A stretch of 41,897 bases of DNA, from positions 1 through 41,897 of IMG/VR virus record IMGVR_UViG_651053023_000011; one strand, written 5' to 3'. Below are positions 35,565 through 36,472 of this stretch, in pieces. Under the pieces are notes generated by a model. That model made no database searches, was not told the DNA's origin, and worked only from the letters and a program-made list of their open reading frames with translations. The translations under genes were made by a program, and so were the position numbers. Source of the DNA: a virus (taxonomy: Duplodnaviria; Heunggongvirae; Uroviricota; Caudoviricetes). Position 1 is the stretch's first letter. Each line of letters begins with the position of its first letter.

Positions 35565-35683
35565 AATCGCATCTCCTATTGACGACATATTATCAATAGG
35601 TAAATCGATATTCAACGTTAAACCTAGAAGTTTCATCGGAAAGCCGATAAACTGCCCAACATAGAGAGGAGAGGAAGATCACA
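35565..35683. promoter_or_regulatory. immunity-region operator/promoter (OR-like): pR-type promoter and dyad operator
   Basis: Minus strand TTGAAT-17 nt-TAATAT; dyad CCTATTGA (35575-82) / TCAATAGG (35593-600) overlapping the -10; second dyad ATCGGAAAGCCGAT. Confidence 0.6.
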
Positions 35684-36376
35684 ATGACATTTTCAGAACG
35701 ACTTGATTTAGCTATGCGCAACGCCAAATTTACGCAAGGCAGGCTGGCCAAAGAAGTAGGTATGGCCCAGTCAAGCGTCAATCAATTACTTAACAAAGCC
35801 AACGGTTCCAGGAAAACAGTTGAAATAGCAAAAGTTTTGGGCGTTAACCCGGAATGGCTCGCATCTGGTGTCGGTCCAATGGAAATCGAGACCTCTGCAG
35901 ACTCACACCAAATACGTAACATTTCAGAAGACAGGATTACTGATTCGTATGTCGTGGATGTTTTAGACATCAGATACAGTTGCGGACCTGGTAGTTATAA
36001 CTCTGATTTTCCAGACATTGTCAGATCTATAGCGATAGAACCAGGATACGCATCAAGAGTTTTTGGCGGCAGACCAGCATCAGCAATCAAAGCAATAAAC
36101 GCCCACGGCGACAGCATGAAAGGCACAATAAACCCTGAGGACTTGGTGTTTGTTGACGTATCAGTTCGCTCATTTAATGGCGATGGTATATACGCTTTTA
36201 CATACTCTGGAACATCGCACATCAAAAGGCTTCAAAAAATCAAAGACACCCTAACAGTGATCTCAGACAATCCAGCTTACAAAGATTGGGCTATCGAACA
36301 AGATGACTTCGAGCAACTTCACATTGACGGAAAAGTAATCGTAAGTTGGCCTATGACGCTACACCGTTTCGCATAA
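35684..36376 (+). CDS. cI: cI-like repressor (XRE HTH + S24 LexA-like peptidase domain)
   Basis: 230-aa ORF; N-terminal HTH (FTQGRLAKEVGMAQSSVNQL), C-terminal GDSM...K Ser-Lys dyad; GAGGAGAGG RBS. Confidence 0.85.
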   Translation: MTFSERLDLAMRNAKFTQGRLAKEVGMAQSSVNQLLNKANGSRKTVEIAKVLGVNPEWLASGVGPMEIETSADSHQIRNISEDRITDSYVVDVLDIRYSCGPGSYNSDFPDIVRSIAIEPGYASRVFGGRPASAIKAINAHGDSMKGTINPEDLVFVDVSVRSFNGDGIYAFTYSGTSHIKRLQKIKDTLTVISDNPAYKDWAIEQDDFEQLHIDGKVIVSWPMTLHRFA

Positions 36377-36396
36377 GCGATAATTATTTAACATCC

Positions 36397-36424
36397 CCGC
36401 CCACTCCACGAGTGGGTTTTTTTT
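36397..36424 (+). terminator. rho-independent terminator after repressor gene
   Basis: CCCACTC/GAGTGGG stem followed by T8. Confidence 0.6.
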
Positions 36425-36443
36425 GAAAAAATCGACAAACCGA

Positions 36444-36472
36444 TTGACAACATGAATAGGTAAACCTATTAT
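36444..36472 (+). promoter_or_regulatory. strong sigma70-type promoter with overlapping operator dyad (pL-like)
   Basis: TTGACA-17 nt-TATTAT; near-palindrome AATAGGTAAACCTATT (36455-70) shares AATAGGTAAA with OR. Confidence 0.55.

Follow-up and report, generated by a model that had tools for sequence, protein, structure and literature searches.

Which DNA sites would serve as the operators of a lambda-like prophage whose repressor has only distant relatives among deposited phages, and would those sites define an immunity type of their own? We addressed this question for positions 35565–36472 of a 41,897-nucleotide stretch of viral DNA (positions 1 to 41,897 of IMG/VR virus record IMGVR_UViG_651053023_000011, assigned to the Caudoviricetes), the whole of which is referred to here as the window. 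The region takes in a divergently oriented cI-like repressor gene and cro-like gene, which are separated by 119 bp, and extends to a promoter downstream of cI; in all likelihood it is the genetic switch, or immunity module, of a lambda-like, phiP27-type prophage of Escherichia coli. A preliminary description of this DNA had placed a dyad over the −10 element of the cro promoter and a second dyad in the right operator (OR), a further site at the promoter downstream of cI, and a 10-mer common to both regions from which a candidate operator consensus, and with it the immunity specificity of the prophage, was read. All four strings that it listed are present where it had placed them. Our analysis indicates that all of these motifs very probably resolve into one 16-bp dyad of two-fold symmetry, present in five copies that would mark repressor-binding sites (Table 1).

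Five copies of one 16-bp dyad in OR and OL

The dyad follows the pattern WATMGN-N4-NCKATW, with the core AATCGG-N4-CCGATT and the consensus A-A-T-(C/A)-G-G-N4-C-C-(G/T)-A-T-T, and the centres of its half-sites lie 10 bp apart. A mismatch-tolerant search with the dyad found at PL, the promoter downstream of cI, gave four 16-mers of the form AAT(A/C)G-N6-C(G/T)ATT, located in both regulatory regions. The pattern WATMGNNNNNNCKATW has four exact matches in the 41.9 kb (0.41 expected), every one of them in OR or in the left operator (OL), and none of 100 shuffles reached four matches. In particular, sites a, b and c make up OR, and sites d and e make up OL, 860 bp away. When a weight matrix built from the sites of relatives only was scored over the 41,882 positions of the window, e, d, b, a and c, in that order, took ranks 1 to 5 (14.3–21.3 bits), and the next position scored 13.0 bits. 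Site d had previously been missed, and sites a and b had been overlooked as complete dyads. The earlier proposal that a single recognition sequence is used both between cro and cI (dyads a to c) and at the promoter beyond cI (d and e) is supported.

The same letters can be parsed differently. In the parse of the preliminary description the OR operator is a 26-bp dyad, CCTATTGA-N10-TCAATAGG (35575–35600), with the −10 element of the cro promoter (PR) within its 10-bp gap; ATCGGAAAGCCGAT (35635–35648) is a dyad of another kind; and the consensus is given by the 10-mer AATAGGTAAA, which occurs twice exactly in the window (35595 and 36455). The 8+8 arms are indeed perfect in the window and in one relative (L005), the −10 element lies dead centre between them, and a 10-mer shared by both intergenic regions arose in just 214 of 5000 shuffles (4.3%). 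However, the window is rich in perfect 8+8 inverted repeats whose arms lie no more than 20 bp apart (40 with nested repeats counted, against 13 expected), so that, taken singly, these features stand just modestly above chance. The 26-bp dyad joins the right half-site of a to the left half-site of b across the PR −10 element, and is no unit of its own. Helix-turn-helix (HTH) dimers of the 434 and lambda type recognise half-sites whose orientation is fixed and which are spaced by about one helical turn. The half-sites of the 26-bp dyad (AATAGG) face outward with their centres 18 bp, or about 1.7 helical turns, apart, whereas those of site e face inward, 10 bp apart, and one HTH dimer could not bind both alike.

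Comparison with relatives likewise favours the 16-bp unit. In relatives whose cI DNA-binding domain is the same and whose Cro is near-identical, the position of the 26-bp dyad reads CCTATTGAACGCATAATAACAACAGG, with the arms matching at 6/8, and in another relative (L024) the arms match at 4/8; a and b are kept in both cases. The 10-mer is replaced in relatives by AACAGGAAAA at b and by AATCGGTAAA at e. Thus the 16-bp dyads are conserved, and the 26-bp arms and the 10-mer are not, despite the identity of the DNA-binding domain. The 10-mer, although shared, is specific to the lineage and over-specifies the consensus, because the central four bases of the dyad vary. As for the other strings, ATCGGAAAGCCGAT is a dyad as described, but it fits the 16-bp pattern and is copy c of the same operator, and AATAGGTAAACCTATT is by itself a complete operator (site e). 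The parse built on the 26-bp dyad and the 10-mer is accordingly very unlikely to be correct; what stands is the existence of an operator family, with the 16-bp dyad and its variable central four bases as the unit.

Table 1. Sites, promoters and genes of the switch region, in window coordinates.
Feature	Positions	Strand	Remarks
Operator a, AATCGCATCTCCTATT	35565–35580		exact match to the pattern; 17.6 bits, rank 4
Operator b, AATAGGTAAATCGATA	35595–35610		exact match to the pattern; 18.1 bits, rank 3
Operator c, CATCGGAAAGCCGATA (includes ATCGGAAAGCCGAT)	35634–35649		one mismatch, at the outermost base; 14.3 bits, rank 5
Operator d, AATCGACAAACCGATT	36430–36445		exact match to the pattern; 18.4 bits, rank 2
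Operator e, AATAGGTAAACCTATT	36455–36470		perfect dyad; 21.3 bits, rank 1
PR-like promoter for cro	35587–35615	-	putative, from hexamers: −35 TTGAAT (35615–35610), 17 bp, −10 TAATAT (35592–35587)
PRM-like promoter for cI	35625–35653	+	putative: weak −35 TAGAAG (35625–30), 17 bp, −10 TAAACT (35648–53)
PL-like promoter	36444–36472	+	TTGACA, 17 bp, TATTAT; 11/12 consensus positions
cro-like gene	35322–35564	-	80 residues; heads the early-right operon; Pfam YdaS_toxin PF15943 and PHROG 35
cI-like repressor gene	35684–36376	+	230 residues; N-terminal HTH and C-terminal S24 autopeptidase; Peptidase_S24, PHROG 4
Intrinsic terminator after cI	36399–36425	+	8-pair stem, then T8; stem kept in relatives
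HTH_3 protein gene	36522–36932	+	136 residues; C-terminal HTH_3, E = 8.5e-12; first gene of the PL operon; PGAP coding sequence

The dyads stand in fixed register to promoter hexamers

Site b occupies the PR spacer from the last base of the −35 element on, and site a spans approximately +1 to +16 of the PR transcript (for a start site placed from the hexamers), takes in the cro Shine-Dalgarno sequence and abuts the cro ATG. Site c lies within the spacer of the putative cI promoter and runs two bases into the −10 element. At OL, the final two bases of d are the first two (TT) of the PL −35 element, and e covers the PL spacer together with the first four bases of the −10 element; PL is the sole match of the promoter scan within 35200–36600. 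With this gene layout, the earlier labels "OR" and "promoter downstream of cI" are correct, the latter being a PL/OL equivalent.

Conservation of the dyads across three clades

We compared the window with relatives from 31 IMG/VR loci and with three Klebsiella phages from a phage collection. The first clade is from E. coli, with a cI DNA-binding domain identical to that of the window in 20 loci; the second has 67% cI identity; and the third, with 51%, consists of the Klebsiella phages Mulock, ST13-OXA48phi12.5 and ST11-VIM1phi8.1. All three clades have 16-bp dyads of this form beside the cro ATG, within the spacer of PR (starting in each at the last −35 base), within that of the cI promoter (ending two bases into the −10 element), directly next to the PL −35 element, and over or just past the PL −10 element. 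The hexamers in the PR register of relatives read TTGAAT/TATTAT, TTGATA/TATGCT, TGGACA/TATCAT and TTGACA/CATAAT, and a cI-promoter −10 element of the form TAnnnT overlaps the end of c in every clade (TAAACT, TAGACT, TAGAAT, TAAAAT and TAGGAT).

The 17 OL variants of the E. coli clade differ in the half-sites of d and e by nothing but an A/C swap at position 4, site d having a single variable column; the 5 bp that separate the −35 element from e are hypervariable, and there is variation in the central 4 bp as well. Among 11 OR variants of this clade, a is invariant and c nearly so. Site c, which reads TATCGGAAAGCCGATA in relatives, is the best-conserved copy across clades, and the counterpart of e in the Klebsiella phages is AATCGCCTTGGCTATT, in exactly the same register.

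These comparisons also bear on whether the likeness between OR and OL might reflect duplicated promoter DNA, or chance, with the dyads having no operator function. On the + strand the a–b and d–e segments are colinear beyond the dyads (GACGACAT versus GACAACAT, with a 5-bp indel), as if the two had a common origin or had undergone gene conversion in this lineage. However, the extra similarity is absent in relatives, and the dyads themselves persist through three clades that have diverged beyond alignment around them, keep a fixed register to the promoter hexamers, and have no exact match elsewhere in the window. Duplication or chance without operator function is thus a scarcely credible explanation of the five dyads.

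The cI recognition helix varies together with the half-site

The cI-like protein matches Peptidase_S24 (E = 2e-17, above the cutoff) and the PHROG 4 repressor family (E = 5e-54). Among solved structures its matches are at the family level only, to 434 repressor chains at the N-terminus (E = 4e-4) and to UmuD chains over residues 133–212. The translation contains G-D-S-M (HGDSMKG), I-K-R-L (HIKRL) and a C-G dipeptide in the linker. With its S24 domain, its catalytic Ser and Lys motifs and its linker, the protein fits the LexA/S24 family of self-cleaving repressors, and cleavage is predicted; indeed, the combination of an S24 domain with G-D-S-M and K-R-L suggests that the prophage would be SOS-inducible. 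The closest deposited phage cI proteins are those of the Klebsiella phages, at 51.5% identity, none exceeding 52%, and a scan of species-representative genomes for relatives of cI returned only a remote Pseudomonas S24 protein.

The Cro-like protein matches YdaS_toxin (PF15943, E = 7e-15, 55 bits against a cutoff of 30) and PHROG 35 ("transcriptional repressor"), and is annotated by PGAP as a "transcriptional regulator". It thus combines a PF15943 match above the cutoff with a gene that is the first one divergent from the repressor gene, as a YdaS-family Cro analogue does. Its HTH is identical to that of cI at 12 of 24 positions, including the A-Q-S-S/T-V with which the recognition helix begins.

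In all three clades the cI helix G-M-A-Q-S-S-V/I-N-Q/K-L-L-N occurs together with the ATCG half-site core. From this co-variation of recognition helix and half-site we infer that cI and Cro would bind to the five sites. One could suppose instead that the sites are real regulatory sites and that their main binder is another HTH protein, either Cro alone or the HTH_3 protein encoded at PL. Such a supposition is helped by the resemblance between the Cro and cI HTH motifs, by the binding of the YdaS protein of CP-933P to its OR region (PMC8630535), and by the presence of the PL-encoded HTH family as the first PL gene in the 67% clade also. Yet the Klebsiella phages keep the operators without such an HTH gene after PL, the helices of the PL-encoded protein differ between the E. 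coli and 67% clades with the half-site core unchanged, and the cI helix does not change among the loci that have the ATCG core. Binding by Cro alongside cI, moreover, belongs to the explanation in which cI is the main binder. A main binder other than cI therefore appears quite unlikely, and the HTH_3 gene at PL is a target of the operators and not a part of them.

Several observations weigh against assigning the five dyads to cI as its operators. The relatives from which the matrix was built share ancestry with the window, so that the matrix test is a check of specificity and not a fully independent one. PR agrees with the consensus at only 8/12 positions, which is under the threshold of the promoter scan, and was not called. 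The invariance of site a may be due to translation signals, as the site lies over the cro ribosome-binding site and directly beside the start codon. Among the five copies b is the least conserved, relatives having AACAGG, with a mismatch at the otherwise invariant T. The matches of cI to HTH_19, HTH_3 and Phage_CI_repr are all under the Pfam curated cutoffs. Lastly, no middle OR site is recognisable in the E. coli clade, the position starting at 35613 scoring 0.4 bits with the matrix, whereas the 67% and Klebsiella clades have a good site at the middle OR position. Because of this last difference, activation of the cI promoter from OR2 in the manner of lambda is not simply transferable to the E. 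coli clade. (Note that self-activation from OR2 is specific to lambda and does not define every lambdoid switch.)

Of the further candidate sites considered, the one at the middle OR position itself (35613–28, CAACGTTAAACCTAGA) was rejected on its score of 0.4 bits, with the homologous register, 35614, at −19.9. Separately, a block that includes this position, TTCAACGTTAAACCTAGAA (35610–35629), which consists of the PR −35 element and 14 bp upstream of it, is almost invariant in the E. coli clade; by the matrix it is not an operator, and its place is the one taken in the other clades by the middle OR site. The sixth-ranked position of the window, 35236–51 (AATCGAAAAAACGGTT, 13.0 bits), lies between the stop codons of a bssS-family gene and of cro. 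The CI operator that HK022 has about 300 bp downstream of its OR would be a model for a remote operator there; the relatives scanned, whose DNA downstream of cro was not examined, show nothing similar at the equivalent offset, and we attribute the match to chance. The next-best matrix match after it is at 33119–33134 (AATCGGATTATCGAAA, 12.5 bits). A candidate at the cI stop codon, 36367–82 (TTTCGCATAAGCGATA), was also put down to chance, having been lost in a 97% clade.

Comparison with known switches

As in lambda, a tripartite OR lies between cI and cro, which are divergent, and a second cluster overlaps PL beyond cI; as in lambda, too, one family of partially symmetric sites lies over promoter hexamers, and the repressor joins an HTH to an S24 autopeptidase. 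Site c, at approximately −19 from the presumed cI start, is placed like OR3. The differences begin with the operators, which are of 16 bp (6+4+6) with AATCGG here and of 17 bp with TATCAC in lambda, and extend to the Cro protein, which belongs to a YdaS/HTH family and not to the family with the lambda Cro fold. OL has two sites here against three in lambda and is separated from OR by 860 bp; rex genes are absent, and cI is followed by a terminator of its own. No OR2 can be recognised in the E. coli clade, site a is downstream of the PR start, and the first PL gene encodes an HTH protein and not N.

HK022 (Carlson & Little 1993, cited in PMC8053113) has the top cI identity, 40%, among the phages known to have experimentally studied operators. 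It has the same gene order and a similarly short distance between OL and OR, approximately 700 bp. Its recognition helix is a different one, and its operators, as read directly from the HK022 OR, are TGAACTTATGGTTCA, of 15 bp and the form TGAAC-N5-GTTCA. Since both the helix and the operators differ, the pair of modules displays the co-variation of protein and site that would be expected, and the module of the window is, judged by these sequences, of a different immunity type from that of HK022.

The Klebsiella phages share the recognition helix and have 16-bp dyads at the same PR, PRM and PL positions. Their half-site reads AATCGC, compared with AATCGG or AATAGG here, and they differ further in having four OR sites with a clear OR2, three OL sites, and cII after cro. 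Their operators are without annotation in the deposited records, and we found no experimental study of them.

The prophage CP-933P/Sp12 (PaaR2, YdaS, YdaT; PMC8630535) resembles the window module in having a YdaS-family protein as its Cro analogue. There, YdaS binds the divergent intergenic region and competes with the CI analogue, which gives rise to bistability (PMC8630535). That CI analogue, PaaR2, is unrelated to the S24 repressor described here, and the repeats of CP-933P are 18-bp palindromes with the consensus GTTTAGTAA.

With 434 the module shares the arrangement of a symmetric operator, in which half-sites spaced by one helical turn stand on either side of a centre that varies and is not contacted, in addition to the match at the cI N-terminus. 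The operators of 434 differ in being of 14 bp, with the form ACAA-N6-TTGT, and the likeness between the repressors is at the family level only.

A candidate model of the switch

From what was directly observed, namely the sites and their statistics, their register to the hexamers, their conservation and the helix co-variation, one can reason to the binding protein, the order of occupancy, any cooperativity or looping, and the start sites. In a lysogen, dimers of the cI-like repressor on a and b and on d and e would keep RNA polymerase off PR and PL, so that both early operons would be silent. Occupation of c would repress the promoter of cI itself and so limit cI synthesis. The YdaS-family Cro would be expected to act on the same sites with another order of preference, c first, and thereby to shut off cI after induction, when the SOS response would have led to cleavage of cI via its S24 domain. 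Looping between OL and OR across the 860 bp is plausible, since the CI protein of HK022 loops in vivo between an OL and an OR approximately 700 bp apart (PMC8053113). The operator consensus and the cI recognition helix (A-Q-S-S-V-N-Q-L-L-N) would together set the immunity type, and to this extent the operators would define a candidate immunity specificity, as had been proposed.

The E. coli clade could conceivably possess a switch that works without any OR2. In such a switch, PR would be clamped by two dimers flanking its −10 element, on b and a, whose centres are 30 bp apart; a further site at 35535–50 would complete a three-site array with a 30-bp period; repression would act across the 5′ end of cro, through wrapping or a roadblock; and cI would not activate its own synthesis. 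We hold this arrangement to be unlikely. Were it nevertheless the case, the perfect 26-bp everted dyad of this lineage might be a by-product, or a reinforcement, of pairing between a and b. As to the additional site, an operator-like 16-mer, AATGGCTTTTTCTATA, is present at 35535–35550, within cro and exactly 30 bp from a. It recurs at the equivalent position in the three clades with 0–2 mismatches (it is perfect in L033); the codons for I-E-K-A-I near-force the pattern, and the mismatches seen are close to the number, estimated at approximately 1.8, that would follow from codon choice on its own.

Taken as a system, the module is an ordinary lambdoid switch, and the only new part of it is the operator consensus. 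No description of this operator was found in the literature on phiP27 or on lambdoid operator specificity. What the analysis offers is a candidate consensus, AATCGG-N4-CCGATT, for an immunity type without a cultured or characterised representative, with a related form in Klebsiella phages. It may be of use for prophage annotation, for the prediction of superinfection immunity groups and as a source of orthogonal repressor/operator parts. The understanding of switches of this kind is unchanged by it; the sole feature that might merit experiment is that one clade appears to have lost its middle OR site.

Setting of the module and neighbouring features

The gene layout was taken from the PGAP annotation of the matching record and from our own family scans with Pfam and PHROG. 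In the early-right operon, cro is followed by Rha, ash, replication genes and Q; the early-left operon begins with the HTH_3 protein and ends with the integrase. The HTH_3 protein matches PHROG 4836 ("CII-like regulator"). Its gene occupies the place that N has in lambda, and the 3′ part has 80–96% DNA identity with phiP27 and with many phages carrying Shiga toxin genes (Stx phages). In the 67% clade the PL operon is headed by a gene of the same architecture with another recognition helix (L033, 2357–2818).

Positions 35300–36950 are identical, at 100%, to prophages of enterotoxigenic E. coli (ETEC) strains from pigs, and the module was found in 24 of 5,426 complete E. coli genomes (approximately 0.4%), pig ETEC strains included, as a single copy in each. 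The flanks are mosaic. Against strain ETEC1732 (L001), the interval 33163–40287 has an overall identity of 95.8%, and a comparison that covers 25514–40287 gave just 89% identity, with indels, on the side of Q, ompC and lysis. A module that is 100% identical within a backbone that is nonetheless mosaic indicates that the immunity module has been exchanged between different prophage backbones.

The bssS-family gene mentioned above (Pfam BssS, E = 3.5e-15; 34920–35294, + strand) is antisense to the early-right operon, within which it stands between cro and Rha. A terminator of its own, at 35266–35294, gives it the pattern of a moron (an extra inserted gene), and there is a run of A8 near its possible start codons. 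Elsewhere in the window, a perfect 32-bp palindrome, ATGTTGTGGGAGATATTTATCTCCCACAACAT, is found at 28790–28821, directly past the stop codon of an ompC-like porin gene (27687–28769, + strand). It is also downstream of the Q gene (29341–28958, - strand), and on the - strand a T-run comes next (ATCTTTTTTAAT). The palindrome looks like an intrinsic terminator, and is possibly a late terminator under the control of Q or one that acts in both directions.

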